Assembly: GCA_934129895.1 (NCBI GenBank)
Contig: CAKOWY010000001.1
Coordinates: 272,788 to 336,787, forward strand
Length of the DNA: 64,000 nucleotides
Origin: an uncultured Clostridia bacterium
GTDB taxonomy: Bacteria > Bacillota > Clostridia > TANB77 > CAG-508
Direction of reading: 5' to 3'
Part shown: piece by piece, positions 11,962 through 37,365 of the stretch
How positions within the stretch are numbered: the stretch's first letter is position 1
Layout: the number at the start of each line of letters is the position of its first letter
Made by a program: the position numbers and the translations under genes
The notes under the pieces: model-generated
The model's database searches: none
The model's input: the letters and a program-made list of their open reading frames with translations, nothing else
What the model was told of the DNA's origin: nothing

Positions 11962-11996
11962 TTAAGCACATTTCCTTTCTTATGTTTAATAACTTT

Positions 11997-12983
11997 TTAT
12001 ATAATCTTTAGTCCAATTATACAAGCTAATAATGTTATTATACTAAATGTCATTACAACTTGATTTTCTCTCCATCCTGATAATTCAAAATGATGATGAA
12101 GTGGTGCCATTTTAAATACTCTTTTTCCTGTTTTCTTGAATACTGCAACTTGAATAATTACTGATAATGTTTCCAAAACTGGTATAATTGCAATAATTAA
12201 TAATAATAATGGCATTTTTAAGTATAATGCAATTCCAGATACAACACCTCCTAAAAACAGTGAGCCTGTATCTCCCATAAATGCTTTTGCAGGATATATA
12301 TTAAACATTAAAAATCCTAATGTTGCGCCTATAACTATTGCACCAAACACTACTATTTCTTTTATTCCAAACATTGTTGCTATAATTGTTAAACATGTAA
12401 TTATAATTGTACTTACACTTGATGATAATCCATCTATTCCATCTGTTAAGTTTATTGCATTTGTTGTTGCAAGTATTACTATAATTGCAAATGGTATATA
12501 TAACCATATTGGCATTGTTACATATTTATTAGCAAATGGTATATATGTTTCTGTCCCTATTTTTAGTCCCCATACTAAATATGCTACAAATGCAATTGAT
12601 ATTATAAGTAGTCCTAACATTTTTAGCTTTGGTTTTAATCCTTCTGTACTTTTTAGTACTAATTTTTTGAAATCGTCTATAAATCCTATAATTCCAAATC
12701 CTGTTGTTAAACATAATATTGGAATTAAATGTTTTGCAAGATTTGCATCTTTCACTTTATAATACATATAAGCTACTATTGTTATAATTATTATACCTAA
12801 CATTATAATAATTCCACCCATTGTTGGTGTTCCTTGTTTTTTTAAATGTGATTGTGGTCCATCTGTTCTTTCTATTTGACCTACTTTTAGTTTTCTTAAT
12901 ATTGGTACTATTATTAATCCAAGCAGTACTGTTACTGCAAATGTTCCTAATAGCATTTTTGTTTGAAAATCCACTTTTATCAA
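11997..12983 (-). CDS. mraY: phospho-N-acetylmuramoyl-pentapeptide transferase
   Basis: The MraY motifs NLTDGIDGL and HHHFE are present, with about 10 TM segments. Confidence 0.9.
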   Translation of the reverse strand: MIKVDFQTKMLLGTFAVTVLLGLIIVPILRKLKVGQIERTDGPQSHLKKQGTPTMGGIIIMLGIIIITIVAYMYYKVKDANLAKHLIPILCLTTGFGIIGFIDDFKKLVLKSTEGLKPKLKMLGLLIISIAFVAYLVWGLKIGTETYIPFANKYVTMPIWLYIPFAIIVILATTNAINLTDGIDGLSSSVSTIIITCLTIIATMFGIKEIVVFGAIVIGATLGFLMFNIYPAKAFMGDTGSLFLGGVVSGIALYLKMPLLLLIIAIIPVLETLSVIIQVAVFKKTGKRVFKMAPLHHHFELSGWRENQVVMTFSIITLLACIIGLKII

Positions 12984-14635: not shown

Positions 14636-15586
14636 TTATTTATTAGTAATTTCTTCTAATTCCAAAAGTTCATTCCATCTCTTATCAACTTCTTTTTGGA
14701 ATTCTTCTATCATCCACTCATTTCCAGGTTTAAACATGTGTTTAAAACGTTTTTGTGGACGTAAGAATTCTTCTACTGGTAATTTTTTTGCTGGTTTATA
14801 TGTTATATGATATTTTCCATCAACAACTTCATATAATGGCCAATAACATGTATCTGCAGCTAATTTATTGATTTTCATTAAATCTTCTGTTGCATATCCC
14901 CAACCTCTTGGACATGGTGCCATAACATTTAAAAATGCTGGTCCTTTTGTATAAATTGCTTTTTCAGATTTTTCATATAAATCTTTAAAATTTGTCATCG
15001 CAAGTGTTTGTGCAACATAAGGAATATGGTGATCTGCCATGATTTTTGTTAAATCTTTTCTTATTTGCATCTTTCCAGGAATAACTTTTCCTGCTGGTGA
15101 TGTTGTTGTGTCAGCAAATTTTGGAGTTGCTGATGATCTTTGAATTCCTGTGTTCATATATGCTCCATTATCATAACATACATAAACCATATCATGTCCT
15201 CTTTCCATTGCTCCTGATAAACTTTGTAAACCTATATCATAAGTTCCACCATCTCCACCAAATGCTATAAATTTTGTGTCTTTATCTTGTGGTAATTTTC
15301 CTTGTTTTTTTAAGGCTTTATATGCCGCTTCTGCACCAGAACATGTTGCACCAGCATTTTCAAATGCTGTGTGTATAAATGAATCTGTCCATGCTGTATA
15401 TGGATATATAAATGTTGATACTTCCATACATCCAGTTGCATTTGCTATAACAGCATGATCTTCTGGTTTTAATGCTCTTAATACCATTCTTGCTACTACT
15501 GGGGCTCCACATCCTGCACACATTCTGTGTCCTTCTGTGAATCTTGATGGCTTTTCTGCCATTATCTTCTTTAAATCATAAGCCAT
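14636..15586 (-). CDS. 2-oxoacid:ferredoxin oxidoreductase beta subunit (TPP-binding; PorB/VorB-like)
   Basis: The TPP-binding signature GDGG is present. It shows the Cys cluster CAGCGAP and is typical of POR/VOR beta subunits. Confidence 0.8.
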   Translation of the reverse strand: MAYDLKKIMAEKPSRFTEGHRMCAGCGAPVVARMVLRALKPEDHAVIANATGCMEVSTFIYPYTAWTDSFIHTAFENAGATCSGAEAAYKALKKQGKLPQDKDTKFIAFGGDGGTYDIGLQSLSGAMERGHDMVYVCYDNGAYMNTGIQRSSATPKFADTTTSPAGKVIPGKMQIRKDLTKIMADHHIPYVAQTLAMTNFKDLYEKSEKAIYTKGPAFLNVMAPCPRGWGYATEDLMKINKLAADTCYWPLYEVVDGKYHITYKPAKKLPVEEFLRPQKRFKHMFKPGNEWMIEEFQKEVDKRWNELLELEEITNK

Positions 15587-15587
15587 T

Positions 15588-16778
15588 TTATTCTTCCCCC
15601 TTTCTTAGTCCTAAATATCTATATGGATTTCCTGTCTCTCCTGTTTTTACTATTTCTTGTAAATCTTTATATACAGATTCTATTTGCATTGTTGTTGTAT
15701 CTCTTCCACCAATTCCATAAATATAATTTACCATTGGTACTTGTTTTTTATTAACATACATTGCTGATGTTACATCTTCAAATAATGCTCCACCTGCTGC
15801 ATTTAATGAATCTGCTTTATCAAGTATTGCTACTGCTTTTAATCCTTGTAATGCTTCTGCAATTTCTTCTGCTGGGAATGGTCTAAACATTCTTAATTTT
15901 AATAATCCTGCTTTTACACCTTTTTCTCTTAATTCATCAACAACTGCTTTTGTTGTTCCTGCTGTTGAATTCATACATACTATTGCTATTTCTGCATCAT
16001 CTAATTTATATTTTTCAAAGAATTCATATTTTCTTCCTGTCCATTTTTCAAATTCTTCTGCAACTTCTTTTATTACTTTTTTAGCATTTTTCATTGCTTC
16101 TGCTTGTTGAGCCTTATGTTCAAATAAATATGCTTGCAAATCTAATGGTCCAATTGCTATTGGCTCTTTATCATTTAATAAATAATGTTCTGGTTTATAT
16201 TGTCCAACAAATTTCTTTACTTCTTCATCATTTTCTAATTCAATATTTTCAATTGAATGTGATGTAATAAATCCATCTTGGCATACCATTACTGGTAATT
16301 GAACATCTTTATGTTCTGCAATTCTATGTGCCATTAACATATTATCATAAGCTTCTTGGTTATTTTCTGAAAATAACATTATCCATCCAGCATCTCTTAC
16401 TCCCATTGCATCTGAATGATCATTATGGATATTTAATGGTCCTGAAACTGCTCTATTTACTAATGCCATTACTATTGGTAATCTTAAACTTGATGCTATA
16501 TATATCATTTCCCACATTAATGATAATCCGTTTGCAGATGTAGCTGTCATTGCTCTTGCTCCAGCAGCTTCTGCACCAATTGTTGCAGACATTGCACTAT
16601 GTTCACTTTCAACTGCAACAAATTCTGTATCTACTTCTCCATTTGATACAAATGTTGAAAAATATTGTGGTATTTCTGTAGATGGTGTAATTGGGAATGC
16701 TGCAACTACATCTGGATTTATTTGTTTCATTGCTATTGCTGTTGCTTCATTTCCGCTTAATCTTTCTCTTATACTCAT
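15588..16778 (-). CDS. 2-oxoacid:ferredoxin oxidoreductase alpha subunit (PorA/VorA-like)
   Basis: It has the pyruvate-flavodoxin/ferredoxin oxidoreductase N-terminal domain. Only a 1-nt gap separates it from the beta-subunit gene. Confidence 0.8.
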   Translation of the reverse strand: MSIRERLSGNEATAIAMKQINPDVVAAFPITPSTEIPQYFSTFVSNGEVDTEFVAVESEHSAMSATIGAEAAGARAMTATSANGLSLMWEMIYIASSLRLPIVMALVNRAVSGPLNIHNDHSDAMGVRDAGWIMLFSENNQEAYDNMLMAHRIAEHKDVQLPVMVCQDGFITSHSIENIELENDEEVKKFVGQYKPEHYLLNDKEPIAIGPLDLQAYLFEHKAQQAEAMKNAKKVIKEVAEEFEKWTGRKYEFFEKYKLDDAEIAIVCMNSTAGTTKAVVDELREKGVKAGLLKLRMFRPFPAEEIAEALQGLKAVAILDKADSLNAAGGALFEDVTSAMYVNKKQVPMVNYIYGIGGRDTTTMQIESVYKDLQEIVKTGETGNPYRYLGLRKGEE

Positions 16779-16812
16779 TTTTTTATTTCCTTTCTAAATT
16801 TTGATTTTTTTA

Positions 16813-17103
16813 TTATTCAACTTTCATTTCTATTGCTTTAAATGGACATACTTGTGCACATACTCCACATCCTTTACAATAGTCAAAATCTGTTTCTGTT
16901 CTTTTACAATCTTTTCCTACTGGTATTGAATTATCTGGACATACTGCAAAACATAATCCACATTGTTTACACTTTTCTTCATACCATACAGGTTTCATAC
17001 TTCTCCAGTCACCTGTTTTAAATTCTCTTGCATTTCCTGCACAATATATGTTTCCACCAATTGTTAAGTCTTTCATTGGTGTTTCTTTGTTTATTTCTGT
17101 CAT
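16813..17103 (-). CDS. 2-oxoacid:ferredoxin oxidoreductase delta subunit (2x[4Fe-4S] ferredoxin)
   Basis: It carries two CxxCxxCxxxCP motifs (CKQCGLCFAVCP and CKGCGVCAQVCP). Confidence 0.8.
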   Translation of the reverse strand: MTEINKETPMKDLTIGGNIYCAGNAREFKTGDWRSMKPVWYEEKCKQCGLCFAVCPDNSIPVGKDCKRTETDFDYCKGCGVCAQVCPFKAIEMKVE

Positions 17104-17125
17104 CTTTCAGCCCTCCTTTTTTATT

Positions 17126-17707
17126 TTATTGGATTTTTGTTACTTCTTTTAATGCTAATTCTAATGCTTTCATATTTCCTTCTATAACTTCTGGCTTTTT
17201 AGCAAATTTGTGTTTGAATGAACCTTTCATATCTTCTAAAAATGCTTCATCACTCATTATTCCTGTTACTTTTACAATTGCTGCAAGCATTGGTGTATTA
17301 GGAAAATATTTTCCTAATGTTTCTTCTGACACTTTTCTTGCATCTATTGTATAAATATTTCCATCATATCCATTTAATTTTTCTTTTAAATATTCTGGTG
17401 ATTTTGTAGTATTTATTACTATTGCTCCTTCTTTTTTTAGCCCTGCAGTTACTGGTACACTTTCTAGTAATGTATCGTCTACAACTACTACATAATTTGG
17501 CTCATATATATTACTATGTATTGTTATTGGTTTATCACTTATTCTATTATAGGCTGTTATTGGTGCTCCCATTCTTTCTGGTCCATATTCTGGAAATCCT
17601 TGAATGTATTTTCCTGTATTAAATGCTGCATCAGCAAGTAATAATGATGCTGTTTTTGCTCCTTGTCCGCCTCTACCATGCCATCTAATTTCTATTAAAT
17701 TGTTCAT
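17126..17707 (-). CDS. 2-oxoacid:ferredoxin oxidoreductase gamma subunit
   Basis: It has the POR gamma-subunit family pattern (IRWHGRGGQG...ITAYNRIS), and an AGGAGG RBS is present. Confidence 0.8.
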   Translation of the reverse strand: MNNLIEIRWHGRGGQGAKTASLLLADAAFNTGKYIQGFPEYGPERMGAPITAYNRISDKPITIHSNIYEPNYVVVVDDTLLESVPVTAGLKKEGAIVINTTKSPEYLKEKLNGYDGNIYTIDARKVSEETLGKYFPNTPMLAAIVKVTGIMSDEAFLEDMKGSFKHKFAKKPEVIEGNMKALELALKEVTKIQ

Positions 17708-17774: not shown

Positions 17775-17894
17775 TTATTGTCAAGTTAATTTTACGACCA
17801 AAAGGTCAAAAAAATAAACAAAAAACCATTATTCTAACAGTTTCTTGTCTACTACTTCGGTCATATTAAATACAACTAATTTATTTTTTATTAG

Positions 17895-18539
17895 TTATTG
17901 TAATGCTTTTATTTCTTCTCTTAATTCTGCTATTCTCCCTTTTCTACTTTTTATTTGTTCACTTATCCTTTCTATTTCAACCATAAAACAAACTTCATCT
18001 TGTGAGCTTTCGTAAAATTCTGCGTTTTTTTCAAAGAATATGTCTATAACTCTTCCTATATTTAAATCTTTTAAACCGTTATCATATACTAATCCACGTA
18101 CATTAGAATATTCAACCAACTGATAAAAAAAACAATATTTAGGTCCTTTGCACCTCTTTTTTAAGTATTGTTTGTCACAACCTACATTTTTTTTACCATA
18201 ATCACATTTTATTTCTTCTATGTTTATATATAAATCTAATGGATTACATATACGTGAATTTTTTCGCAAAACTTCGTCAAGAGATAATCTCATACTTGTT
18301 ATTCCTTCTTGCATTCCACAAGGAGGAATTAATAAAAGTTCCTGTTTATTTTCTTCATCTGCCAATCTCCATTCTATACTGCCATTTGTTTCCGGACATT
18401 TTAATTCCAAATTTTTATGTTGCTTTAAAATTTCATATAAACTTATCCTTGGCTCAATTTTAGAACAAAACGGACATAGAAAACTAGATATATCAAATGC
18501 CCTTATGAATACTCTTTCTGAATTAAGAATATCATTCAT
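17895..18539 (-). CDS. hypothetical Cys-rich protein with C-terminal coiled coil (paralogue of the next gene)
   Basis: MNDILNSERVFIRAFDISSFLCPFCSKI... is followed by further Cys pairs and a C-terminal RIAELREEIKALQ segment. It has an AAAGAGGA RBS, and its ATG overlaps the upstream gene's stop by 8 nt. Confidence 0.6.
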   Translation of the reverse strand: MNDILNSERVFIRAFDISSFLCPFCSKIEPRISLYEILKQHKNLELKCPETNGSIEWRLADEENKQELLLIPPCGMQEGITSMRLSLDEVLRKNSRICNPLDLYINIEEIKCDYGKKNVGCDKQYLKKRCKGPKYCFFYQLVEYSNVRGLVYDNGLKDLNIGRVIDIFFEKNAEFYESSQDEVCFMVEIERISEQIKSRKGRIAELREEIKALQ

Positions 18540-19341
18540 TATCTGAATCCTCTTTCATAAATATGATATTTCTCTTACTCGAATATTTTTTCATAGGTTG
18601 TATTATTGGTTGTTCTGTAGGAACTTTATCTTTTTGACTTTGATTAGATACCTTCTTTCTTTTGGTCGAAGTTGATGACTTTTTACTTTTTGGGCTTTTA
18701 GCAACACTAGTTTTTTGAATCTCCTCTTTTTGAACTTGTTTAGACTCATCTACTTGTGAATTGATCTTTTCTTTTTCTTGAGCTTCCTTTTTTAATATTG
18801 CTAATTGACTCTCTAATTCTTGTTCTTCTATCTTTAATCTTTCTTCCTCTTTTCTTAATCTTTCAAGATAAAAAGTAGTTGAACATTGTTTATATTCTTC
18901 TGGATCAAATTCAAATGCCAATTGTATTGTTCTTGGTGATTTACAATACTTTCGATTTGCACAATTGTATTTATCACATTTTAAAGCTTTAGGAATAAGA
19001 TATACTCTTGGTTCATCTGGTGCTTCTTTGATATCATATCCAGATTGATATACTGATAAACAACAATTTTTAAAGCAAATTTTTGCATAAATACATGGCA
19101 AAAATAAGCCTGCTCCTTCTGAATAAGCTAATTTTATTACTAGATAAACTCCAGCTTCATACTCCTCCTCTGAAATTTCATCACAACTCAAATAAATTTT
19201 AAATTCATTGTAACGATCTGAAATATAACGTGAACTGTACTGCCCTTCAATTGAACTTATTCTTGAATTCCAATCATGCCATTTTCCACAGTAAGGACAT
19301 AAAAATCGCTTGATTTTGCAATTCAATAAACTTATATTCAT
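18532..19341 (-). CDS. hypothetical Cys-rich protein with coiled coil and Lys/Ser-rich tail (paralogue of the previous gene)
   Basis: It most likely starts at the ATG at 19339-19341 (MNISLLNCKIKRFLCPYCGKW), which has a GGAGG RBS. The track start at 19407 is a TTG. It shares with its neighbour the MN..L....FLCP(Y/F)C(G/S)K N-terminus and the same domain order. Confidence 0.6.
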   Translation of the reverse strand: MNISLLNCKIKRFLCPYCGKWHDWNSRISSIEGQYSSRYISDRYNEFKIYLSCDEISEEEYEAGVYLVIKLAYSEGAGLFLPCIYAKICFKNCCLSVYQSGYDIKEAPDEPRVYLIPKALKCDKYNCANRKYCKSPRTIQLAFEFDPEEYKQCSTTFYLERLRKEEERLKIEEQELESQLAILKKEAQEKEKINSQVDESKQVQKEEIQKTSVAKSPKSKKSSTSTKRKKVSNQSQKDKVPTEQPIIQPMKKYSSKRNIIFMKEDSDNE

Positions 19342-19515
19342 TCTGCTTCCTCCATAACTAATATTTCTCATTTGTAAAGTATCATCTAAGCTACTTATCT
19401 CAGACAATTCTTACATTTTTTCAGCGCATGTTATATTACAATTTTGATATTTTGCAAATCTATTATGTTTATTCAAAAAATAAAGATAAGTTATAAAACT
19501 TTTGATTTTACTAAC

Positions 19516-20556
19516 TTATCTACTTTCATCTTTTTTTCCCATATTTTCTAATCTTTGTATCCAATGTTGATTTTCATCTTCCATCTGTATTCCAATTTTA
19601 AATGCTTCTTCTTCATCTCTAATTAAATCACTAGGATTATCTTTCTTTTTACTACAATTAAAACTATTATACATTTCTATAGCTAAACTTTTTAAATCTC
19701 CATATTGATTATTTTTATATTTTAAATGTTTTATATTTTCTCTTACATCTTCAAAAAGACATCTACTAGTATTTGTATGCTCTCTTTTGGTATATACTAA
19801 AAATTCAAATTCTGCTACACTAGATTTTTTAGATATTTTTAATCCTGTTTGATATATATGAAGAATGAAATTGGCTATACCTAAAAATTGTTGTATAGGT
19901 ATTATTTTTGAACTTGAATAAAATCTATATACATTTTTTTTATTTCTTCCATTAGCTTCTATTGTTCTAACAGCTATTATTGAAATATTCCTTCCTTTTT
20001 CTATAACTATTCCATCTTTACAAATATCCATAGGTCCTGATTTTCTTATCAAACTTGATACTTTGTTATTTGAAAATTCAAATTGCGTAACATATTTTTT
20101 TGATTCTAAAACAATATGCCCTATTTCATACCATAATCCATTACTAGAATAATCAAAAACGCTTTTTTTGCTATTTCCAAATGGAAGTGTTTGTATTGCT
20201 TTTTCAATTCTTTCTTCATTAACTTTCTTCCCAGATTCTTGAACTAACAGCATTTTTTCTAAATCTTCATCACTTAGTTTTTGTCCTAGAACTTTTTCTA
20301 AAATAGCACTATATATTTCAAGTTTTCTATTTAATACTTCATTCTTTTTAGCTAGTGCCCTAATTCTTGCTATTTCTAAATTTCTCTCATCAATTGATGC
20401 ATTTATTTCATTAATTTTTTGATTTATTTCTTGCTCCTTTTGTAGTGTTTCTTTTCTTACTTGTTCTTCCGCTTCTCTTCTCAACCTTTCAGAAATCGTC
20501 TCTTCACTTGACACTTGTTTAGAATCTACTTCAGGATAAATTGTTCTTTTTTTCAT
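19516..20556 (-). CDS. hypothetical protein (N-terminal coiled coil, unknown C-domain)
   Basis: An AAAGAGG RBS precedes the ATG. It lies 11 nt downstream of the previous gene's stop. I recognise no domain in it. Confidence 0.55.
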   Translation of the reverse strand: MKKRTIYPEVDSKQVSSEETISERLRREAEEQVRKETLQKEQEINQKINEINASIDERNLEIARIRALAKKNEVLNRKLEIYSAILEKVLGQKLSDEDLEKMLLVQESGKKVNEERIEKAIQTLPFGNSKKSVFDYSSNGLWYEIGHIVLESKKYVTQFEFSNNKVSSLIRKSGPMDICKDGIVIEKGRNISIIAVRTIEANGRNKKNVYRFYSSSKIIPIQQFLGIANFILHIYQTGLKISKKSSVAEFEFLVYTKREHTNTSRCLFEDVRENIKHLKYKNNQYGDLKSLAIEMYNSFNCSKKKDNPSDLIRDEEEAFKIGIQMEDENQHWIQRLENMGKKDESR

Positions 20557-20567
20557 TTTTTACCTCT

Positions 20568-21203
20568 TTATTCCAATTCCATATATTCTGATTCTTCTTC
20601 TTCAATAACTTCCATTAATTGCTCTGACCAAAATTCTAATTCTCCTATATAATAATTTAATATTTTCTCCATAAGCTGCACATTAATTGTATTATAATGT
20701 TTTTGAATTAATTGTTGTATTTGATTAGCTTTTTCTGTTGTTATCGGATATTTTGATAAAAAGTCTACATCATATTCATTTAAAATACGATTTCGTAATA
20801 AATTCACTCTTTCAAACATATCATAATAAATTCCACACTTGTTTCCACATTCTAAATAATACACTATAGTGTCTATAGTCCATCTATTTCTAAGTAATGC
20901 CACAATTGTTCTTTCAGAAGACATTTCATGAGTAAATTTTTTTAATTCTTCCAAAACTTCTGAATTTTTTTCACCATAAGCTTGACTTAATTTATTTTTT
21001 ATTTTTAATTTTGACTTTTTTTTGGCTATCTTCTTTCTATATTTAGCAATTTCTTTTATGAAATCTAAATATTCTCTTGTTTGCTCTTGATCAATATGTT
21101 TTGAAATTGTGTCAACAACTCCTTTTATAATTGCATCATTTTCTGCTAAGATTTTTTCCTCATTTTCAATCTTTTCTTGACTTTCTTTTGATATGCGCTT
21201 CAT
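20568..21203 (-). CDS. hypothetical protein
   Basis: The ORF has a charged N-terminus. The ATG at 21201-21203 has a GAGGGG RBS, so the track start at 21218 is probably over-extended. Confidence 0.5.
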   Translation of the reverse strand: MKRISKESQEKIENEEKILAENDAIIKGVVDTISKHIDQEQTREYLDFIKEIAKYRKKIAKKKSKLKIKNKLSQAYGEKNSEVLEELKKFTHEMSSERTIVALLRNRWTIDTIVYYLECGNKCGIYYDMFERVNLLRNRILNEYDVDFLSKYPITTEKANQIQQLIQKHYNTINVQLMEKILNYYIGELEFWSEQLMEVIEEEESEYMELE

Positions 21204-21332
21204 TTTTGCCCCTCTCATATTTTTAACATAATATCTCTCCAGTTATTTAATTCTTCGTTTATGATTCTATATACATTTATTATTTGAATATTTATATTCT
21301 TATTCATTACAATTTCTGTATTTGTGACTTTT

Positions 21333-21518
21333 TTATTTTGATATGCATATTTTAACATTCCGCTTTGCTCTTAATTCATTTTGAATTTGTTTTATTTCTT
21401 GAAAATCTTCTTTTGTCATTTGTAATATTTCTTTATTAGACATATATTGTGATAATATTTCTATTTTTTCTATATAACCTAAAATTTTTTTATAATTGTT
21501 TATATTTTCTTTTTCCAT
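21333..21518 (-). CDS. small hypothetical protein (61 aa)
   Basis: It is a short ORF with a weak RBS, co-oriented at the head of the hypothetical-protein array. Confidence 0.3.
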   Translation of the reverse strand: MEKENINNYKKILGYIEKIEILSQYMSNKEILQMTKEDFQEIKQIQNELRAKRNVKICISK

Positions 21519-21609
21519 TATTAAAATCTCTTTCCATAATTTTTTATTTTAGGCTTAATTGCCAGCTCAAAAGTAACATAATTATATAACAATAATATAA
21601 AATTGTCAA

Positions 21610-21653
21610 TAAAAAAGCTAAGAGCTACCACAAATCTGTGATAGCTCTTGCTT
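21610..21653 (-). terminator. Rho-independent terminator closing the island operon
   Basis: Imperfect 16-bp stem AAGCTAAGAGCTACCACA / TGTGATAGCTCTTGCTT with an AATC loop. It begins 1 nt after the TAA stop at 21655-21657 and is followed on the minus strand by TTTTTTATT. Confidence 0.6.
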
Positions 21654-21654
21654 T

Positions 21655-22614
21655 TTAGTCTAACGTATCTGCCTGTACGATATTAGCAGGTGTAAAATAT
21701 CTTGCAAATAAATTTCCACCTACTTCATATCCACCCATAGTTGCGTTTATTGCATTAAATTGTAACTCTCTCGAAGCCAGAGATTCAATGATAAAAATTA
21801 CATTTTCAGAAATTAACTTCATTATCATCTCCAATGTCTGAATTGTAAGGGGATTTGTACTAGTACAAATAACAAATACAAACTTAGTATTTGCACTGTA
21901 AAATCTTTGCATTTTTCCAATGATTTTTTTGAATGTTTCGTTCCTTTGACTTCGCATAGATATTGTATAGAGTCTTTTAAGTCCACTCTCCCAATAATTC
22001 ATATATTCATCACTGGGATCACTATAAAGCTCTTGAAGATATGTTAAAATCTCCCTTGCCTCATATTCTATATAACTATCTCTATAATATCCTACATGAT
22101 ATCTATCATCTTTTTCTATCTCATTCATTATAGTTGCTGCAATAAGATTATAGATATCATGTCCAGTGTTTGCAATGTCAACTCGATTGAATAAGACAAC
22201 ATCCTGATTTCTAATATCATATAAGGTTCTATCTACCAGGATATCGGCATTCATTCCAAATACCCCAATCAAACCAGTATTACATTTAGGTCTGTTTATG
22301 AGTGGCTGTACTTTAGCTGTAAGCTGATTTGATCTTCTTGCCGTTCTATCAGAACTTTCTACAGCTCTTGATGCAGTCATGGGAACTACTTCAGAATTTT
22401 CCCTTTGATTTCTGAAATCTTCTGATGATTGTTCATTTCTCCTCTCTTCTCTAGTTGCATAATTACTATTTTCCTGATAACTTTGATAAGATTCAGCATA
22501 ACTGTCTTGTCTTCTTGCTTCGTTTCTTATCTCAGTTTCTTCCTTTTTTGGACTATTTTGAGCAGTAATTTTCTGCCCAGTTTGTTCAAAATATATTTGG
22601 CGCCGTCTTGCCAT
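21655..22614 (-). CDS. hypothetical protein, last gene of island operon (about 100-aa polar disordered N-terminus + uncharacterised C-domain)
   Basis: Its ATG overlaps the upstream TAA (TAATG), and an AAAGGAG RBS is present. The N-terminus is rich in Q/E/R/S/N (QNSPKKEETEIRNEARRQDSYAESYQSYQENSNY...). The C-domain (GLIGVFGMNADILV...KFVFVICTSTNPL) is unassigned. Confidence 0.7.
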   Translation of the reverse strand: MARRRQIYFEQTGQKITAQNSPKKEETEIRNEARRQDSYAESYQSYQENSNYATREERRNEQSSEDFRNQRENSEVVPMTASRAVESSDRTARRSNQLTAKVQPLINRPKCNTGLIGVFGMNADILVDRTLYDIRNQDVVLFNRVDIANTGHDIYNLIAATIMNEIEKDDRYHVGYYRDSYIEYEAREILTYLQELYSDPSDEYMNYWESGLKRLYTISMRSQRNETFKKIIGKMQRFYSANTKFVFVICTSTNPLTIQTLEMIMKLISENVIFIIESLASRELQFNAINATMGGYEVGGNLFARYFTPANIVQADTLD

Positions 22615-24020
22615 TATTTTCTCCTTTCACATTGTGATAAGGAATTTTTCTCCAATAACAAACTCTTTGCCCTGTTTTTCACAGGATCTTTAAATTCGCC
22701 TCTTTCTATTATCTCATAAAACCATCTTTTTGCATCAGCCGTGTAAACATCCAGTACTTTTTTGGCTCTTTCTTGCTCGAATTGACTTCTTGCATTAGTA
22801 ATAACCAATATAACTTTTTCAAATTCTTTAACATACTGGAGTTTTTCTGCAGTATCTGTTCCTGCAATAAAAGCATGTTTTTGACGATAGCTTGCTTTTA
22901 TAATATTTTTAGGAAATTGCATTAAGGCATGACATGCCAAAAAATATTCTCCTAAAATACTTCCTTCAGTCATTTCTCTTTCAGGAGCAGGATAACATGT
23001 TGCAGAAAATATTTGTTCAATTGTCCTCATTCTCCTTTGCTTTACAGTTGCCTCAATCTGATTTGGAAGTTCTGCTGCTTTAGTTCCCTCTACAGGTTCA
23101 TAACTTGCAACTCCAATATCACTGAAATATCCTTTTTCGAGATATTGAACCAAACCTCTAAATTCAGATTCCGTTTCTCCAGGATATCCAACAATTACTT
23201 CTGTTGAAATAATCAAATCAGGACGCAGTCTTTTTAAAGCATTTATCTTTTTATCCACATCTTCAAATAGTGGACGATTCATGCTTTTTAAGATACTTGG
23301 TGAACTATGCTGTATATGCAACATAATTTCAACAATGTTTGCGTTTTGTCCAATGAGTTCAATCACTTCATCAGTTAAACCTGCCGGATGAAACCAACCA
23401 ATAACATATCTGCAATCAGGATAGCCTTTTACAATTCTTGTCATCAGTTCAGCAAATTTTCTTTTTCCATACAAATCAACACCATAATCAGATGTTTCTT
23501 GTGCACCTGTAATATAAATAGTCGATTCGCTTGGATACATATTGCTAACTTCTTGCAAAATGTCTTGCATGCTTTTACTATGATATTCACCATAAAATTG
23601 AGGATAAACACAATAAGAGCATCTATGATTACAACCAGTCGAAATAATAACTTTGTTTTGTGGAATCCATTGAACATTAATATTGGGTTTATTGAACTTT
23701 GCAAGTACTTCTTCAAAAGATTTTACCTTAATTGGTGCTTCTTCTTTTAACTCTTTCAGTTCTTCTTTGCAAAGTCTTTCCAAACACCCTGTAACGATAA
23801 CTTCAGCATCTTTTTTCTTATTAATGCAAACATCTGCAATAACCTGCATAGAATACAGCTTATTAGGACCAAAAGCACAGGTAAGAATGATTATACAATC
23901 AGCAATCGTATAATCATTTACTACTTCATACCCAACAGTACTTTTAACCCGATTTACCAGTTGATTTGCATTATCAATGTCCATGTGCATGTCATTACAG
24001 AGAATTACCGCAACTTTCAT
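22614..24020 (-). CDS. radical SAM methylthiotransferase-like enzyme (MiaB/RimO/MtaB-type architecture)
   Basis: The N-terminal MTTase-type domain has three Cys (ILCND, ILTCAF, VTGCLERLC). The radical-SAM CxxxCxxC motif is CNHRCSYC. A C-terminal extension of more than 100 aa follows. The ATG overlaps the upstream TAA, and a GGAGG RBS is present. Confidence 0.8.
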   Translation of the reverse strand: MKVAVILCNDMHMDIDNANQLVNRVKSTVGYEVVNDYTIADCIIILTCAFGPNKLYSMQVIADVCINKKKDAEVIVTGCLERLCKEELKELKEEAPIKVKSFEEVLAKFNKPNINVQWIPQNKVIISTGCNHRCSYCVYPQFYGEYHSKSMQDILQEVSNMYPSESTIYITGAQETSDYGVDLYGKRKFAELMTRIVKGYPDCRYVIGWFHPAGLTDEVIELIGQNANIVEIMLHIQHSSPSILKSMNRPLFEDVDKKINALKRLRPDLIISTEVIVGYPGETESEFRGLVQYLEKGYFSDIGVASYEPVEGTKAAELPNQIEATVKQRRMRTIEQIFSATCYPAPEREMTEGSILGEYFLACHALMQFPKNIIKASYRQKHAFIAGTDTAEKLQYVKEFEKVILVITNARSQFEQERAKKVLDVYTADAKRWFYEIIERGEFKDPVKNRAKSLLLEKNSLSQCERRK

Positions 24021-24604
24021 TAATATCCTCCTTCACGCACTTTCGTACGAGAATCTGTAGTTTTGGATTTTGTTTTGGTTTCCTGCTGATATTCTTTGGT
24101 GAACTCTCGATTTGCAACTTTACCAAGTGCATTTTCAAGTGCAAGATATTTTTCACATTTCTTGCCTTTGAGCCCTTTGGGTTCAAACTTTACTTCACCA
24201 TCTTCAGATACAGATACCATCATAAATCCACCACTAGAATCCTGGGGATCTCTAACCTTGTAGCTACCTCCTTCTTGTTTGCTCACACTCAAATGCATCT
24301 TTTTGGCAGTCTTTTTCATCATCTCAATCGCATAATTGCTCATGATTATCGAACCATTATAGCCAATATATCTGGTAACATGACCGTCCCAAAAATCAGC
24401 CGTAATGTTATAATTGCCTGTCATGCTCTTTTCAAGTGCACAATCATATATTCCTGGAAGTTTTACTACATTCTCCTTTAACTGTGCACCTCCATAAAAC
24501 CGACACATTCCTTCGTCAACCATGTTAAGTCCCATGTTCGCCAAAGCTGATCTTGCACACTCCAAATCTCGGATCTCGGTATAAATAGTTGTAAAATGAC
24601 TCAT
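24020..24604 (-). CDS. Ycf35/DUF1257-like protein with Lys/Thr/Glu-rich C-terminal tail
   Basis: The N-terminus MSHFTTIYTEIRDLECARSALANMGLNM matches, from recollection, the MSHF..I.T.I.D...L..AL.DLG start of plastid/cyanobacterial Ycf35 (DUF1257). A TAATG overlap and GGAGG RBS are present. Confidence 0.65.
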   Translation of the reverse strand: MSHFTTIYTEIRDLECARSALANMGLNMVDEGMCRFYGGAQLKENVVKLPGIYDCALEKSMTGNYNITADFWDGHVTRYIGYNGSIIMSNYAIEMMKKTAKKMHLSVSKQEGGSYKVRDPQDSSGGFMMVSVSEDGEVKFEPKGLKGKKCEKYLALENALGKVANREFTKEYQQETKTKSKTTDSRTKVREGGY

Positions 24605-26244
24605 TACTGATTTCCTCCTTCAAAATTGATTGTTCGACCAGTCTTTTTCTTTTTATTAGTAGTGCTTCCTTTGCTTTCTGCACTATCATCTGAATGAATA
24701 TTAGCCCAACGAATATTTTCTTTTTGTGCCCATTCTGTTAATGCTTCTACGGTTTCTTTCATGATTCCTTTAGATGCTGGTTGAAGTACTTCCATCTGAT
24801 TTAAAATATCGTTTGTATTCAATTCTCTTGCATTATCTGCAAAGGAATTAAACATTGCCGATATCACGGCTTCTTCGATTTCTGCACCTGTGAAACCATC
24901 AGATACCTCAGCCAATTTTTCAACATCAAAGCTTTGAGCATTACGCCCTTTCTTTTCAAGTTGAATACTTACAATTTCTTCTCTTTCTTTTAAATTAGGA
25001 AGACCGACAAAAAAGATTTCATCAAATCGTCCTTTTCTCAAAAGTTCAGGTGGAAGAGATGTAATATTATTGGCAGTTGCAATAACATAAACTGCAGATT
25101 CTTTTTCCTGCATCCATGTAAGAATACTTGCAAACATACGGGAAGATACTCCAGAATCGTTTCTACCACCTGCTCCAGCACCAGCTAAACCTTTTTCAAT
25201 CTCATCAATCCACAACACACAAGGTGACATGGCTTCTGCCGTCTGAAGGGCTTTTCTGGTATTGGCTTCTGTATCACCAACATAGCTTCCAAAAAGTTTT
25301 CCAAGATCACATTTAATGAGCGGAACACTCCAAGTATTTGCCAATGCTTTGGCTGCCAAGCTCTTTCCGCATCCAGGAATACCTACAAGCAATACTCCCT
25401 TAGGGTTAGGTAAACCATATTTTTTTGCCTTATCTGAATATGCCAGAATACGCTTCTGGGTATATTCCTTAAAGTTTTGCATTCCTCCCACTTTAGTAGA
25501 ATCATGATTGTTCCAAAACTCAAGCAAACCATCTTTACAAATTATTTGTGCCTTAACTTCCGAAACAATCTCTAAATCAAGAGCCCGCTTTTTTGAAAAA
25601 GACGTTGATATTGCATTTTCAGCCTGATTTAACGTCAATCCCAGTAAAATCTCTGCTGCCTTTTCTGTTATAGACGAAATCTTTTCAAGTTCACTTGCCT
25701 TCAAATTGTCCTTGAATCTTTCAACCATATCATTAATGAGCTCTACAAAATCTTCTTTTTTAGGGAGCTCTAAATCAATGGAAACTGTAGATTCTTCCCA
25801 ATCTTTAGGCACGTCAAATTGATTGCTAATAAAGATAAAACAACATCCAATTTCATTTGCTTTTTCAAATGCTTCTTTTGCTGCTCGCAAAACCAAAGGC
25901 TGATCAACAAAATGATGGAAATCAAGCATACATAAAATGTATTCTCCTTGCTCATCATTAAGTTTTAAGCCTTCAGTTAATGCTTCTTGAGGATCTGTGA
26001 CATCTGCGTTTTCTTCTACCAGGTAATAATCTTCCATGTCGATATAATTTTTGTCACCACGAATTTGGATTCTGGGATCAACAACCTCCATGATTCCCCT
26101 TGTACAAGACCAATAGTATACCCTTTTTTGATAATGCTGACCTGCTCTTAAACAATCTGCCAAGGCCCGGTTTTCTTCGGGTGTTTGCAGGATAACTGAT
26201 GAGTAACCTGCGCTGATACAACCAGAGATGGATAATTTACTCAT
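24604..26244 (-). CDS. Ycf46-family AAA+ ATPase
   Basis: It has Walker A (GIPGCGKS), Walker B (LWIDEIEK) and the Ycf46-like segments TWMQEKESAVYVIATANN and LLRKGRFDEIFFVGLP. The preferred start is the ATG at 26242-26244 (MSKLSISG), which has a GGAGG RBS. The track start at 26259 lacks an SD. Confidence 0.85.
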   Translation of the reverse strand: MSKLSISGCISAGYSSVILQTPEENRALADCLRAGQHYQKRVYYWSCTRGIMEVVDPRIQIRGDKNYIDMEDYYLVEENADVTDPQEALTEGLKLNDEQGEYILCMLDFHHFVDQPLVLRAAKEAFEKANEIGCCFIFISNQFDVPKDWEESTVSIDLELPKKEDFVELINDMVERFKDNLKASELEKISSITEKAAEILLGLTLNQAENAISTSFSKKRALDLEIVSEVKAQIICKDGLLEFWNNHDSTKVGGMQNFKEYTQKRILAYSDKAKKYGLPNPKGVLLVGIPGCGKSLAAKALANTWSVPLIKCDLGKLFGSYVGDTEANTRKALQTAEAMSPCVLWIDEIEKGLAGAGAGGRNDSGVSSRMFASILTWMQEKESAVYVIATANNITSLPPELLRKGRFDEIFFVGLPNLKEREEIVSIQLEKKGRNAQSFDVEKLAEVSDGFTGAEIEEAVISAMFNSFADNARELNTNDILNQMEVLQPASKGIMKETVEALTEWAQKENIRWANIHSDDSAESKGSTTNKKKKTGRTINFEGGNQ

Positions 26245-26333
26245 AGAATTTTCCTCCATTTTTTATTGTTTGTTATTGAAAAAACTTTGGCTACAAAATA
26301 GTTTTTTTATAACCAATAAATTTTTTCCGTGTA

Positions 26334-26362
26334 ATTATATCACATCCCTTAATTTATGTCAA
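26334..26362 (-). promoter_or_regulatory. consensus sigma-A promoter of the four-gene island operon
   Basis: On the minus strand it reads TTGACA (26357-26362) - 17 nt - TGATATAAT, with the -10 at 26334-26339. It is an extended -10 and lies about 85 nt upstream of the ATPase start. Confidence 0.5.
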
Positions 26363-26403
26363 TTTCTTATGACGTGTTATTAATAAAAAAAGTTTTTATA
26401 TAA

Positions 26404-26448
26404 CCAAAAAGAGAAGGCTACATATAATATGTATACTTCTCTTTTTGG
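26404..26448 (-). terminator. long hairpin after the 240-aa island gene
   Basis: Perfect 13-bp inverted repeat CCAAAAAGAGAAG...CTTCTCTTTTTGG enclosing a second palindrome TACATATAATATGTA. It sits 10 nt 3' of the stop at 26458, and the U-run on the minus strand is displaced by about 10 nt. Confidence 0.45.
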
Positions 26449-26457
26449 AAAATGAAT

Positions 26458-27180
26458 TTAAAATCTTATCGGACCATCTCCAGAATCAACAATGATTATA
26501 AAATCAGTAATCTTATGTTCTACAAACCATCTTAAAATCTCTCGACTTTGCTCATCCACCTTATAATATCCTAATGCACAAAAAACTTTTGTGTCATATT
26601 GTAAAAAGGCCTTTTTCAGTGATTGTATTGCTTCTTCTATATTTTTAGCTTCTTCTCCTATTACTCTCCTTTGATATCTTTCTTTATAACTCATAGGGTA
26701 TTGATAATGAAAACCTAGATTTTGTGCACAATATTGCAAATTATACCTTTGTTCAACGATTTCGATATACCTTAAACGTGAATATGCTGTATCTTCGCAC
26801 CTACTATACACTGATACTAAGCTTTCTGCAATACGCCAAAAGATATTGGAAAAAGATTCCATAGAGATAAAACCCAAGAATACTGTTTGCAAAGAAAAAA
26901 TAGAATTCGATATTCTGGCTGTACTATCTCTAAATTTTTTTATTTCAGAATAAGCATTTTCTCCGTAAACATTTATTATATTCGTCTTAGGATTCTCTTC
27001 TCTAAATAATTGTGTTGCCACTTTTTCGAACCCGCGATCTCTTACTAATTGAATCCCCTCGTTTCTTTGAACTTTAGAGTTTTCTTCATTTGGTTCTTCT
27101 TCACTTTTTAAAAATACAAATTCGCTATCTTTGCGTACCAAGATTTCTCCATTGTTTTCTGCATAAATTTTCCGTCTCAT
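26458..27180 (-). CDS. hypothetical protein (first gene of island, own promoter and terminator)
   Basis: The ATG at 27178-27180 (MRRKIYAENNGE) has a GGAGG RBS, whereas the track start at 27201 is a TTG. I recognise no domain; the C-terminus ends ...ITDFIIIVDSGDGPIRF. Confidence 0.65.
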   Translation of the reverse strand: MRRKIYAENNGEILVRKDSEFVFLKSEEEPNEENSKVQRNEGIQLVRDRGFEKVATQLFREENPKTNIINVYGENAYSEIKKFRDSTARISNSIFSLQTVFLGFISMESFSNIFWRIAESLVSVYSRCEDTAYSRLRYIEIVEQRYNLQYCAQNLGFHYQYPMSYKERYQRRVIGEEAKNIEEAIQSLKKAFLQYDTKVFCALGYYKVDEQSREILRWFVEHKITDFIIIVDSGDGPIRF

Positions 27181-27263
27181 ACTGTACCTCCATGTTGTCA
27201 ATTATTCATTTTTTACATTCTGTTGAACTGTTTCAGAATCGTTTTTAAACAAAACTTACGTGT

Positions 27264-27292
27264 ATTATATCATTTTTGCAATTTTATGTCAA
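27264..27292 (-). promoter_or_regulatory. consensus sigma-A promoter of the 240-aa island gene (near-duplicate of 26334-26362)
   Basis: It reads TTGACA (27287-27292) - 17 nt - TGATATAAT, with the -10 at 27264-27269. The surrounding sequence cgtgtattatatcat...ttatgtcaatt closely matches the operon promoter. Confidence 0.45.
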
Positions 27293-27300
27293 TTAATCTT

Positions 27301-27801
27301 TTATATTATTGCTGATGAGACATGATATATTGTACATTTTTCTTTTAATAATCTTTTTGCTTCTCTTAATACTTTTTGTTCATCATCTAATAATATTGAA
27401 TGTGTATAACTTTCTTCCCTTTTTTTGATATTTTCCCCTTTTATTATATCTCTATTTTGTGATGAATAATCTCCTATCTCTTTCGTTAAAATTATCCAAT
27501 TATCTTCTTTTATAAATGGTACATATTTTTTTAACCAATTCTTCTTTTCTTCTGTTATTTTATTTGTCTTAGATAATGATAGAATATACATATCAAGATT
27601 CTTTATATTTGACAATTCTTTTAAATTTTGTATTACACATTTTAAAGGTTCAAATTCTTTATATTCTTTTCCCATTTTTTCAGCAATCTCATTTGATTCA
27701 TATATATGATATTCAACTATTGTTCCATCCATATCAATATACATAGCAACTTTTTCATTTGCTTCACATATCTTTTTAACTTTTTCTATAAAATTACTCA
27801 T
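27301..27801 (-). CDS. HAD-superfamily 5'(3')-deoxyribonucleotidase-like protein
   Basis: The HAD motif I is DxDGT-like (MYIDMDGTIVEY) and the length is about 166 aa, as in NT5C-type nucleotidases. An AAAGAGG RBS is present, and the GC content is host-like. Confidence 0.6.
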   Translation of the reverse strand: MSNFIEKVKKICEANEKVAMYIDMDGTIVEYHIYESNEIAEKMGKEYKEFEPLKCVIQNLKELSNIKNLDMYILSLSKTNKITEEKKNWLKKYVPFIKEDNWIILTKEIGDYSSQNRDIIKGENIKKREESYTHSILLDDEQKVLREAKRLLKEKCTIYHVSSAII

Positions 27802-27930
27802 AATTACCTCTTTCTATTAATAAAAAAATTATACCAGACATATTTATATTTTTCAAGTTTTACTTTTCTATTTACATTATTATAAAAATATGATAATATG
27901 TATAAAAGTTCTAATGAAAGGATGTGTACT

Positions 27931-28113
27931 ATGTCTGAAAAAAATAAAAAAATTGAAATAATTACTGATGATAGTTCAAACCTTGTAATTTCACCAGTTT
28001 ATGAACATATTAAAGATGTAAAACCAAAAATAACAGATAAGAAAAATATTATTATCCCAGGTGAAAAGAAAAAAGAAAATGAAGATAATAAAAAAGAAGA
28101 TAGTGAAAATTAA
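27931..28113 (+). CDS. small Lys/Glu-rich hypothetical protein (60 aa)
   Basis: Only plus-strand ORF with an RBS (AAAGGA 9 nt before the ATG at 27931). It is convergent with mreB and low-complexity, so it may be spurious. Confidence 0.3.
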   Translation: MSEKNKKIEIITDDSSNLVISPVYEHIKDVKPKITDKKNIIIPGEKKKENEDNKKEDSEN

Positions 28114-37341: not shown

Positions 37342-37365
37342 TAAACTCCCTCTTCTTTACAAGTT

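Follow-up and report, generated by a model that had tools for sequence, protein, structure and literature searches.

In cyanobacteria, the AAA+ ATPase Ycf46 (slr0374/Synpcc7942_0417) heads a three-gene operon that is induced by stress and (p)ppGpp and whose function is unknown (PMC7496141; bioRxiv 10.1101/2025.07.21.665879). The radical S-adenosylmethionine (SAM) methylthiotransferases comprised four recognised clades as late as 2023, all of them three-domain enzymes that include TRAM; three of the four clades act on tRNA A37 and RimO is the sole protein modifier (PMC2952846, PMC10702137). Here we describe a gene cassette in which relatives of both systems are encoded side by side. It lies in a 64-kb stretch of DNA from an uncultured Clostridia bacterium (contig CAKOWY010000001.1; this whole stretch is called the window and its first nucleotide is position 1). 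The cassette encodes a Ycf46-type ATPase, a fused DUF1257 (Ycf35)-DUF2997 protein, a RimO-like radical-SAM enzyme and five orphan proteins, and in this content it extends the Ycf46/Ycf35/DUF2997 system in a Clostridial form not described before, one that includes a RimO-like enzyme without TRAM. From its sequence, we read the cassette as a horizontally acquired, now fixed module that would couple ATP-driven remodelling to radical-SAM methylthiolation, and we put the probability of this reading at about 0.6.

A first-pass annotation of the window had marked out a GC-rich island of about 5.7 kb and five genes at 21610-27292. We found that the conserved unit is larger. L002 and L003, two contigs of other samples, align to the window only between 27293 and 19514, at 83-85% nucleotide identity; homology starts at the -35 box of the first cassette promoter, P1 (27293), and stops 2 nt past the stop codon of the last gene, g8 (19514). 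Their flanks are unrelated to those of the window, with an Fe-type alcohol dehydrogenase gene upstream and, downstream, a 77-residue high-GC open reading frame (ORF) and an unknown gene. The arrangement AAA-DUF-rSAM-g5-g6-g7-g8 (rSAM, radical-SAM enzyme) recurs in L004, L007, L109 and L111, and in a fifth further lineage, L013, AAA-DUF-rSAM-g5 alone was detected by profile. These further loci sit among differing housekeeping genes (mutS/asnB, sipL-yunB/PLD, secA, prfB). The recurrent array is co-oriented and encodes an AAA protein of ~540 residues, a DUF1257/DUF2997 protein of ~190 and a UPF0004 plus radical-SAM protein of ~455, followed by proteins of 260-320, 60-108, ~210 and 346-475 residues; the gene upstream of AAA encodes about 210-314 residues and is usually co-oriented. 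By BLASTP, g2 to g8 are homologous among the window, L002, L004 and L007, at 53-88% identity for the AAA, DUF and rSAM proteins and 24-95% for g5-g8. The ratio of nonsynonymous to synonymous substitution (dN/dS) is 0.11-0.32 for all eight genes, which are under purifying selection and appear functional. On the homology edges and the shared order, we are highly confident that 19514-27293 is a self-contained 7.8-kb conserved cassette of eight genes. The borders drawn from composition had tracked transcription units and not the acquired or conserved unit, and delineation by GC alone missed 2-4 kb, a caution for genome scans. When 21000-28000 was compared at the nucleotide level with collections of phages and plasmids, distant AAA-domain similarity alone was returned. 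The features of the cassette and of the stretch beside it are as follows (GC3, G+C content at third codon positions).

27264-27292, minus strand: promoter P1, a 12/12 consensus match with a TG extended -10; upstream edge of the cassette; kept in L002
27217-27239, minus strand: palindrome ATTCTG-N11-CAGAAT (6-11-6) in the g1 leader, seen in the sequence and also in L002; a possible operator or leader hairpin
26458-27180, minus strand: g1, 240-residue orphan, unit 1; ATG at 27180 after GGAGG (the mechanical ORF starts at 27201); GC3 0.23, dN/dS 0.25
26404-26448, minus strand: terminator-like hairpin after g1 with 22-nt arms, 91% complementary; a T-rich stretch starts about 12 nt past the stem
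26334-26362, minus strand: promoter P2 before the AAA gene, 12/12 with TG; perfect promoters stand at the equivalent place in L002, L109 and L111
24604-26244, minus strand: g2, Ycf46-family type-II AAA+ ATPase, 546 residues; corrected start ATG at 26244, as in conspecific gene calls
24020-24604, minus strand: g3, fused DUF1257 (Ycf35)-DUF2997 protein, 194 residues; KA1/TBP-like alpha+beta domain, small DUF2997 domain, disordered basic tail
22614-24020, minus strand: g4, RimO-like radical-SAM methylthiotransferase, 468 residues; UPF0004 and radical-SAM domains, then a family-specific C-terminal region of ~130 residues
21655-22614, minus strand: g5, 319-residue orphan, last gene of unit 2; charged low-complexity N-terminus of ~110 residues and a conserved C-terminal domain with the motif LIGVFGMNxD
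21620-21649, minus strand: intrinsic terminator of unit 2, a 13-bp stem and a T tract
21581-21609, minus strand: promoter P3 before g6, 12/12 match
21215-21518, minus strand: g6, small helical protein in two parts, g6a (21333-21518, 61 residues) and g6b (21215-21358, 47 residues) in the overlapping +1 frame
20568-21218, minus strand: g7, helical orphan of 211-216 residues with an acidic C-terminus ending E-L-E or E-F-E; dN/dS 0.31, GC3 0.17
19516-20556, minus strand: g8, 346-residue orphan, last cassette gene; N-terminal coiled coil and conserved C-terminal domain; dN/dS 0.30, GC3 0.10
17811-19513, minus strand: accessory stretch beside the cassette with x9 (18532-19407, 291 residues) and x10 (17895-18539, 214 residues); missing from the sister species

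The 64-kb window holds just three perfect TTGACA-N17-TATAAT sites, P1 to P3, and all three are on the coding strand within the cassette. L002 has the same three perfect promoters, and L109 and L111 have perfect promoters in front of the AAA gene and in the space that follows g5. From these sites, the cassette is predicted to form three transcription units, g1 (unit 1), AAA-g3-g4-g5 (unit 2) and g6-g7-g8 (unit 3), each behind a putative sigma-A consensus promoter. The AAA/g3, g3/g4 and g4/g5 junctions are TAATG overlaps, each with GGAGG upstream, and AAA, g3, g4 and g5 are thus translationally coupled. The consensus promoter that the first-pass annotation had seen abutting the HAD-like gene at 27264-27292 proved to be perfect, and it begins 8 nt beyond the stop codon of that gene. 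The hairpin that it had placed at the other border (21610-21653) exists at 21620-21649; however, it lies inside the cassette between units 2 and 3 and marks no island edge. An Rfam match of the g1 hairpin to mir-247 (32 bits against a gathering score of 70) was rejected as a false positive from the hairpin, and apart from it the Rfam scan found no RNA gene or Rfam element in the cassette.

Like the cyanobacterial and plastid ycf46 operon (slr0373-slr0374-slr0376; Synpcc7942_0416-0418), the cassette is small and self-contained and has a full-length AAA+ ATPase (35-40% identity over about 500 residues) with a DUF1257 (= Ycf35) protein with an MSHF(S/T)T start directly downstream of it. In contrast, the cyanobacterial loci examined consist of a small upstream ORF, AAA and DUF1257, and the operon is described as three genes, core to the lineage and induced by stress, (p)ppGpp and RpaB (PMC7496141; bioRxiv 10.1101/2025.07.21.665879), while here DUF1257 and DUF2997 are fused and accompanied by an rSAM enzyme and five orphans. 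The cassette is also compositionally foreign and is absent from the sister species at this locus, and its promoters look like constitutive sigma-A sites, suggesting that its regulation may differ.

In the ATPase, g2, the motifs GIPGCGKS, DEIEK, YVG (pore loop) and RKGRFD of the second AAA module (D2) do not vary across the family alignment. The first module (D1) is degenerate and has no Walker A, with GYSSVILQTPEE at its expected place, and we predict an active D2 and a pseudo-ATPase D1. The protein matches Pfam AAA (1.4e-32) and, over its full length, phrog_8638 (1.6e-126), and its C-terminal half matches the D2 of p97 (2e-57). In an AlphaFold (AF2) model (pLDDT, the model's own confidence score, 81.8), the N-terminal half folds as a degenerate D1, and by Foldseek the model aligns over about 560 columns with D1-D2 of p97/Cdc48, Rix7/NVL and Drg1/AFG2 (TMq 0.55-0.60, identity 17-20%). 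With these proteins g2 shares the tandem D1-D2 fold and a classical-clade D2 with the YVG pore loop and arginine-finger region; it differs in being bacterial, in lacking an N-terminal substrate or cofactor domain and a D1 Walker A, and in having small DUF1257/DUF2997 partners instead of UBX- or Ufd1-Npl4-type adaptors. Among the matches listed, relatives of 35-49% identity over residues ~10-512 come from many phyla, and full-length relatives of 35-40% from Cyanobacteria, Chloroflexota, Myxococcota, Armatimonadota and archaea; Heliomicrobium homologs (42% identity) are named 'AAA domain-containing protein ycf46' by UniRef. A profile search of contigs with the AAA alignment returned at least 600 stretches, mostly from distant phyla among the matches listed, and an exact look-up of the window ATPase returned a single 2.5-kb contig.

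Ycf46-type ATPases were also seen in other settings. A Clostridium butyricum megaplasmid (L011; NZ_CP073278.1, 250698-252395) and Mycobacterium phage Bora (L012; gp95) encode full-length or near-full-length members (profile E 5e-122 and 1.6e-97) with no detectable DUF1257/DUF2997 or rSAM partner, and the plasmid neighbours are a WYL-domain protein and a recombinase. On this evidence, members of the family have been recruited into several different modules. In a 48.5-kb viral contig (L113; IMGVR_UViG_3300014204_000260), 9585-12790 encodes a triad of DUF1257, DUF2997 and a Ycf46-like AAA; phages do carry the core triad, though not the Clostridial rSAM version.

In the partner protein, g3, DUF2997 is matched above its Pfam cutoff (PF11211, 41.1 bits against 24.1, residues 130-173) and carries an invariant Cys150, while DUF1257 by Pfam alone is below threshold (18.5 bits against 22.2). 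With a profile of the g3 family, we found a RefSeq-annotated DUF1257 protein at 3.5e-20 and the ORFs just downstream of cyanobacterial AAA genes at about 1e-10 to 1e-12; g3 and DUF1257 proteins share the MSHF(S/T)T start, and the family member P0142 carries PF06868. Of 80 loci from different phyla, at least 37 have, by the same profile, DUF1257/DUF2997 ORFs directly beside the ATPase. A search of BFVD with the g3 model gave unnamed or weak matches alone, and no cassette of the Clostridial type emerged from IMG/VR scans with the g3 family and rSAM. Most Clostridial DUF1257-DUF2997 proteins end in G-G-Y or G-Y on a disordered basic tail (24020-24080 in the window), and the separate DUF2997 protein of Paenibacillus ends in N-G-G; such an ending is reminiscent of the tags or docking motifs at the C-terminus of ubiquitin-like and proteasome-associated proteins.

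The third protein, g4, keeps the UPF0004 and radical-SAM core of RimO, MiaB and MtaB (PF00919, 32.9 bits; PF04055, 67.8 bits). Seven cassette enzymes all share six cysteines, which line up with those of the MiaB encoded in L004: C130, C134 and C137 form the CxxxCxxC motif, and C8, C48 and C79 are the positions of the auxiliary [4Fe-4S] cluster. Against the trusted cutoffs, g4 scored 208.8/357 bits for RimO (TIGR01125), 205/251 for TIGR00089, 156.7/357 for MtaB, 137.9/355 for MiaB and 122.4/315 for e-MtaB, and so falls below those of all four clade models and below that of the general MiaB/RimO model; in the PDB, RimO 4jc0 matches it best (1.4e-39). Unlike the described enzymes, g4 has no detectable TRAM (no PF01938 match at E <= 0.01, while the MiaB in L004 does show TRAM) and has a C-terminal region of its own, ~130 residues that include helical segments and the conserved motif 'SATCYPA'. 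Its operon encodes an AAA+ unfoldase, which is not mentioned for any of the four clades in PMC2952846 or PMC10702137. A peptide-maturation cluster (ribosomally synthesised and post-translationally modified peptides, RiPP) was considered and rejected: g4 is of methylthiotransferase type, no RiPP-type maturase was found in the Pfam scan, and g6 is not precursor-like, being 95% identical between the window and L002 and a conserved helical protein of ~105 residues elsewhere, with no Cys-rich or variable core.

A similar arrangement in another Firmicute is on plasmid pPPM1a of Paenibacillus polymyxa M1, where AAA, DUF1257 and DUF2997 are followed by a CxxxCxxC radical-SAM-type protein and two hypotheticals, so the association of the triad with a radical-SAM protein is not unique to this cassette. 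The pPPM1a locus differs in that its Fe-S protein ('4Fe-4S single cluster domain') is a 193-residue activase-like protein and not a methylthiotransferase, in that DUF1257 and DUF2997 are separate genes, and in being on a megaplasmid; no g5-g8 homologs were detected there. The first-pass annotation had given none of the island genes a recognisable housekeeping role. None is a classic housekeeping gene; however, g2, g3 and g4 are identifiable as members of the Ycf46, Ycf35 (DUF1257)/DUF2997 and RimO-like methylthiotransferase families.

For the five orphans, no homolog of known function was detected. g1 is 67% identical to g1 of L002. The C-terminal domain family of g5 has 28 representative clusters in 1.84e9 proteins, none with a fused domain. 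By hhalign, g5 paralogs stand downstream of the L007 cassette, and a 210-residue gene of L111 is grouped with them by position and length alone; among the cassette families hhalign found no g1-g5 relationship, just the g5 paralogs and one g7-like N-terminus. In L004, L109 and L111, g6 is a single ORF of ~102-108 residues. Its split is identical in L002 and in conspecific gene calls, with both halves intact and a dN/dS of 0.13 for g6a, which suggests gene fission or programmed +1 frameshifting near GCA-AAG-C-GGA and not decay. A homolog search with g8 gave two close matches alone, and profiles of g5, g7 and g8 against PDB sequences gave coiled-coil noise alone and no PDB relative. In the accessory stretch, x9 and x10 are Cys-rich CPxC proteins, each with 'FLCP(Y/F)C', a motif like a zinc ribbon, at the N-terminus and a coiled coil at the C-terminus; PADLOC and NCBIfam scans gave no family match for either.

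We next turn to composition, which had led the first-pass annotation to the locus. The seven 60-nt G+C values that it gave were all recovered (45.0, 38.3 and 35.0% in the block, 20.0-25.0% in the flanks), and G+C content is 34.3% in 21610-27292 as compared to 26.2% for the window outside 17811-27300. In a 1-kb scan, G+C peaks at 0.383 at 24.5-25.5 kb, with a second peak of 0.339 over porA. The five genes of the block have GC3 values of 0.21-0.34 (mean 0.252) as compared to 0.118 ± 0.030 for the 43 other genes of the window. At four-fold degenerate sites, G+C is 20.0% in the block and 4.0% in pooled host genes; the block has 10.4% G and 9.6% C at these sites, while the maxima among 26 single host genes are 6.6% G and 4.7% C. 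Sliding-window G+C, GC3 and four-fold sites thus agree that the block is compositionally distinct and that G+C is not uniform. The excess is located at synonymous positions. G- and C-ending codons of the block are raised in every degeneracy class, and the excess of units 1 and 2 resembles the product of another mutational background rather than of codon-specific selection. Translational selection for C-ending codons was rejected as the cause of the raised GC3, since G+C is raised in every codon class; the highly expressed host genes por and mreB have low GC3. By raw tetranucleotide distance, 22-27 kb gives the top three outliers (z 3.1-4.0).

Two other places in the window deserve mention. Outside the cassette, the single gene that nears the GC3 of the block (0.24) is at 62199-62852 (217 residues); it adjoins the sole tRNA of the window, tRNA-Glu at 62008-62082, and may be another small foreign insertion. 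After correction for base composition, the strongest tetranucleotide outlier of the window is 37000-42000 (z 2.7; G+C 0.20-0.23), which covers genes for DUF7657/DUF7654 and DUF2142 membrane proteins in the cell-wall glycosylation region.

To compare synteny, we sampled contigs that encode an identical MreB or PorC; an identical PorC is found on 841 contigs, and those examined come from human-gut metagenomes. In the window, all identified genes lie on the minus strand (dnaE, spoIIP, a histidine kinase, murG, ftsW/spoVE, mraY, a Mur ligase, porB-A-D-C, gap, HAD-like, mreB and the cell-wall glycosylation region), and the co-orientation of five island genes that had been pointed out is therefore true but uninformative. 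Conspecific contigs from nine samples, including Hadza metagenomes and the metagenome-assembled genome GCA_964313975.1, are 98.8-99.5% identical to the window, and every one shown has mreB, HAD, g1 to g8 and porC, with g1-g8 intact; strains of the same species that lack the cassette were thus not found among them. Variation in these contigs is confined to the g8-porC stretch, where x9 and x10 are being lost through frameshifts and through deletions (19003-19120 and 18059-18786 are absent from L101 or L105).

In contrast, contigs of a sister species (L104, L106-L108), 92.6-93.1% identical to the window across por-mur, lack the cassette at this site, so it is not a conserved core feature of the whole genus. 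Their order is mraZ, rsmH, a 178-residue gene, a reversed 139-residue gene, HAD, a reversed 212-residue gene and porC, and about 0.9 kb stands where the window has 17811-27300 (9.5 kb). The first-pass annotation had asked whether the mreB-side and por-side flanks are adjacent where the cassette is lacking. On the por side the sister does continue to the HAD-like gene; however, the far side is mraZ-rsmH and not mreB. In the sister species, the four-subunit por operon lies within the dcw cluster (mraZ-rsmH-...-[HAD, porCDAB]-murE-mraY-ftsW-murG; por is at 14636-17707 in the window), so in the window species the mreB/glycosylation region replaces the mraZ side and a large rearrangement breakpoint lies just upstream of HAD. 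The HAD/NT5C-like gene (27301-27801) is the sole gene common to both species inside the variable zone. It has 64% amino-acid identity to the sister, with a synonymous divergence (dS) of 0.58 and a dN/dS of 0.43, as compared to 100% and a dS of 0.11 for PorC; recombination may have exchanged it, or selection on it may be relaxed. The diverged HAD gene and its swapped upstream neighbour (mreB in the window species, mraZ in the sister) mark the site as a rearrangement hotspot. The reversed 212-residue filler gene of the sister (L107 9026-9664; also in L104, L106 and L108) has a GC3 of 0.29 as compared to about 0.09-0.13 in its neighbours, which makes it an independent uptake of foreign DNA at this site. 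In L002, the 77-residue ORF right after the cassette (8419-8652) looks by eye GC-richer than its surroundings and has a promoter-like TTGACA upstream and a hairpin with a T run downstream; it adds to the signs that foreign genes gather where the cassette inserts.

How the cassette came to be here can be weighed from these data. We lean towards horizontal gain in this lineage, because composition looks foreign, because the L002 copy lies at a different locus with homology edges that run from promoter to stop, and because dS and the retained GC3 point the same way. Between the window and L002 cassettes, dS is 0.15-0.82, 2-3 times the dS of host genes to the sister species (0.05-0.33), and both cassettes keep the same raised GC3 at different loci in hosts with a four-fold G+C of about 4%; by these comparisons, independent acquisition of the two is suggested. 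The cassette would have entered by recombination without a dedicated mobility apparatus, from a low-GC Clostridia lineage of somewhat higher G+C, and such a donor would leave units 1 and 2 standing out in composition. A foreign origin of the block is reasonable yet unproven, as is the route of entry. A number of observations weigh against our reading. Corrected for base composition, the tetranucleotides of 22-27 kb are unremarkable (z 1.1-1.5), so that the tetranucleotide evidence is split and the anomaly of the block is one of base composition and not of oligonucleotide signature. The raised GC3 is limited to units 1 and 2, and unit 3 (g6-g8) is host-like at 0.10-0.17. Unit 2 has a GC3 clearly above the host flanks in six of seven measured cassette loci (the window, L002, L004, L007, L109 and L111; in the seventh, L013, it barely differs from the flanks) and above unit 3 wherever unit 3 was measured, L007 excepted, and g3 tops the unit-2 genes at every locus where measured. 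These patterns point to an intrinsic, gene-specific GC3 bias that could exaggerate the 'foreign' signal and that lets unit 3 escape a GC scan. The sister site itself holds the foreign-looking filler gene, making loss or replacement there possible, and gain versus loss is not polarised, as L106, tried as an outgroup, is the same species as L107 upstream (98.9% identical). Library scans of the window proteins (including Pfam, PHROG and NCBIfam) found no integrase or transposase domain, there is no tRNA nearby (the window's only one is at 62008-62082), and no credible flanking repeats were found, which agrees with the absence of an integrase, transposase or tRNA at the borders noted in the first pass. 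On the mechanistic side, g1 and g5-g8 and their divergent orthologs gave nothing significant in Pfam, PHROG, PADLOC or NCBIfam; a vestigial TRAM-like strand, at most one, may persist in g4 ('IAG-TDT' as compared to 'LTGRTDS' in MiaB); and DUF1257 is similar to KA1 domains, and some of these, as in METTL16, bind RNA, so that a tRNA or rRNA substrate is a live alternative. Much of this would suit an ancestral, vertically inherited Clostridial operon that was lost or replaced in the sister and shuffled elsewhere, with the raised GC3 intrinsic to the genes of units 1 and 2. Such an operon would explain why the cassette is in all conspecific contigs shown and under purifying selection, and why it is widespread in low-GC gut Clostridia, always amid housekeeping genes and never beside mobility genes; the GC3 pattern of unit 2 and g3, the host-like corrected tetranucleotides and the filler gene of the sister fit it too. 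However, four-fold G+C is five times that of the host in all codon classes with no host gene near it, the low GC3 of por and mreB leaves no known selective force to account for the bias, the L002 edges at the promoter and just past the stop with unrelated flanks fit transfer of a module, and at a dS of about 0.3-0.8 in hosts with 4% four-fold G+C most of the excess should be gone. We consider vertical descent a doubtful account. With genomic and defence islands the cassette shares an atypical composition, absence in a close relative, a position between conserved operons and an adjoining variable stretch, but it is only 7.8-9.5 kb, has no integrase, tRNA or direct repeats and is fixed in the species. 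A remnant of a prophage, an integrative and conjugative element or a transposon, or an assembly chimera, might be read from the foreign G+C and from the full-length PHROG match of the ATPase; yet there are no structural, integrase, relaxase or transposase genes in or beside the cassette, IMG/VR scans showed no rSAM or g3-type cassette, and identical junctions in independent assemblies from nine samples rule out a chimera, so that this possibility is effectively refuted.

What the cassette does can be framed more loosely. In the mechanism that we favour, the ATPase would assemble into a double-ring hexamer like that of p97, with the active D2 ring threading or remodelling a macromolecule; g3, with its KA1/TBP-like fold, would be an adaptor of the ATPase or a handle on the substrate, and the TRAM-less g4, with two [4Fe-4S] clusters, would put a methylthio group on the exposed target, which would more likely be protein than tRNA; the fast-evolving orphans g1 and g5-g8 would supply specificity or regulation, and g3 may also contribute to specificity. 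This model draws on the AAA-g3-g4-g5 coupling, the threading-competent D2, the adaptor-like g3 with its disordered tail and the complete two-cluster methylthiotransferase core without TRAM, the domain that usually binds the substrate. We hold an ATPase/adaptor/rSAM complex that modifies a macromolecule to be a proposition just short of even odds, as far as gene content and domain architecture can tell. That the substrate is a protein is a tentative guess, favoured because g4 is nearest RimO and because the ATPase is an unfoldase. The fullest version, in which g4 represents a fifth methylthiotransferase clade, one without TRAM, and joins a Ycf46-type unfoldase and DUF1257-DUF2997 in a stoichiometric complex to modify a protein residue exposed by ATP-driven unfolding, is unlikely to hold in every part. 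If g4 instead modified RNA (tRNA or rRNA), the KA1-like DUF1257 would replace TRAM in trans, and ribosomes or other ribonucleoproteins would be what the ATPase remodels. That would follow the three of four methylthiotransferase clades that act on tRNA A37 (PMC2952846, PMC10702137), and it would suit an ATPase whose nearest structural relatives include the ribosome-biogenesis AAA proteins Rix7/NVL and Drg1/AFG2, a cyanobacterial ycf46 operon that is anticorrelated with ribosomal gene expression (bioRxiv 10.1101/2025.07.21.665879) and the RNA-binding of some KA1 domains. However, g4 scores higher for RimO (208.8 bits) than for MiaB (137.9) or MtaB (156.7) and has RimO as its best PDB match, the KA1/TBP-like fold is generic and makes mostly protein or lipid contacts, and the cassette holds no RNA gene or Rfam element, so we regard an RNA target as improbable, though a rival to be taken seriously. 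More remote still seems a role in defence, as a new system against phages or for abortive infection with an IetA-like AAA+ ATPase at its core. The ATPase domain does match PADLOC IetA (2.2e-33) and NCBIfam IteA_antiphage (1.1e-28), Ycf46-like ATPases occur on phages and plasmids, with the triad on one IMG/VR contig, and patchiness between sister species, foreign composition, fast accessory proteins and the variable, decaying x9/x10 would all be expected of a defence locus. In contrast, the IetA/IteA matches span the generic AAA module only (residues ~273-513; 100.5 bits against a cutoff of 510), which is also the extent of the likeness to known defence systems; there is no IetS protease, and the other nine proteins scanned have no PADLOC match. 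The cassette is fixed in all conspecifics shown and not strain-variable, no restriction-modification, toxin-antitoxin or defence genes are among the neighbours in the loci examined, and cyanobacterial and plastid members of the family are core, stress-induced genes (PMC7496141).

Taken together, a small GC-rich islet without mobility genes is ordinary, and its gene content is less so. The cassette is a good experimental lead and not a demonstrated novelty. The Ycf46/Ycf35/DUF2997 triad spans plastids, cyanobacteria, archaea and phages, and its biochemistry is unknown; coupling to a radical-SAM enzyme of well-understood chemistry gives a testable hypothesis for the target of the ATPase and its adaptor. 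g4 is possibly a fifth methylthiotransferase subgroup, and its missing TRAM may be supplied in trans. If unfoldase-coupled protein methylthiolation is true, the cassette would encode a new kind of post-translational modification machine and would offer the first biochemical handle on the Ycf46/Ycf35 system.

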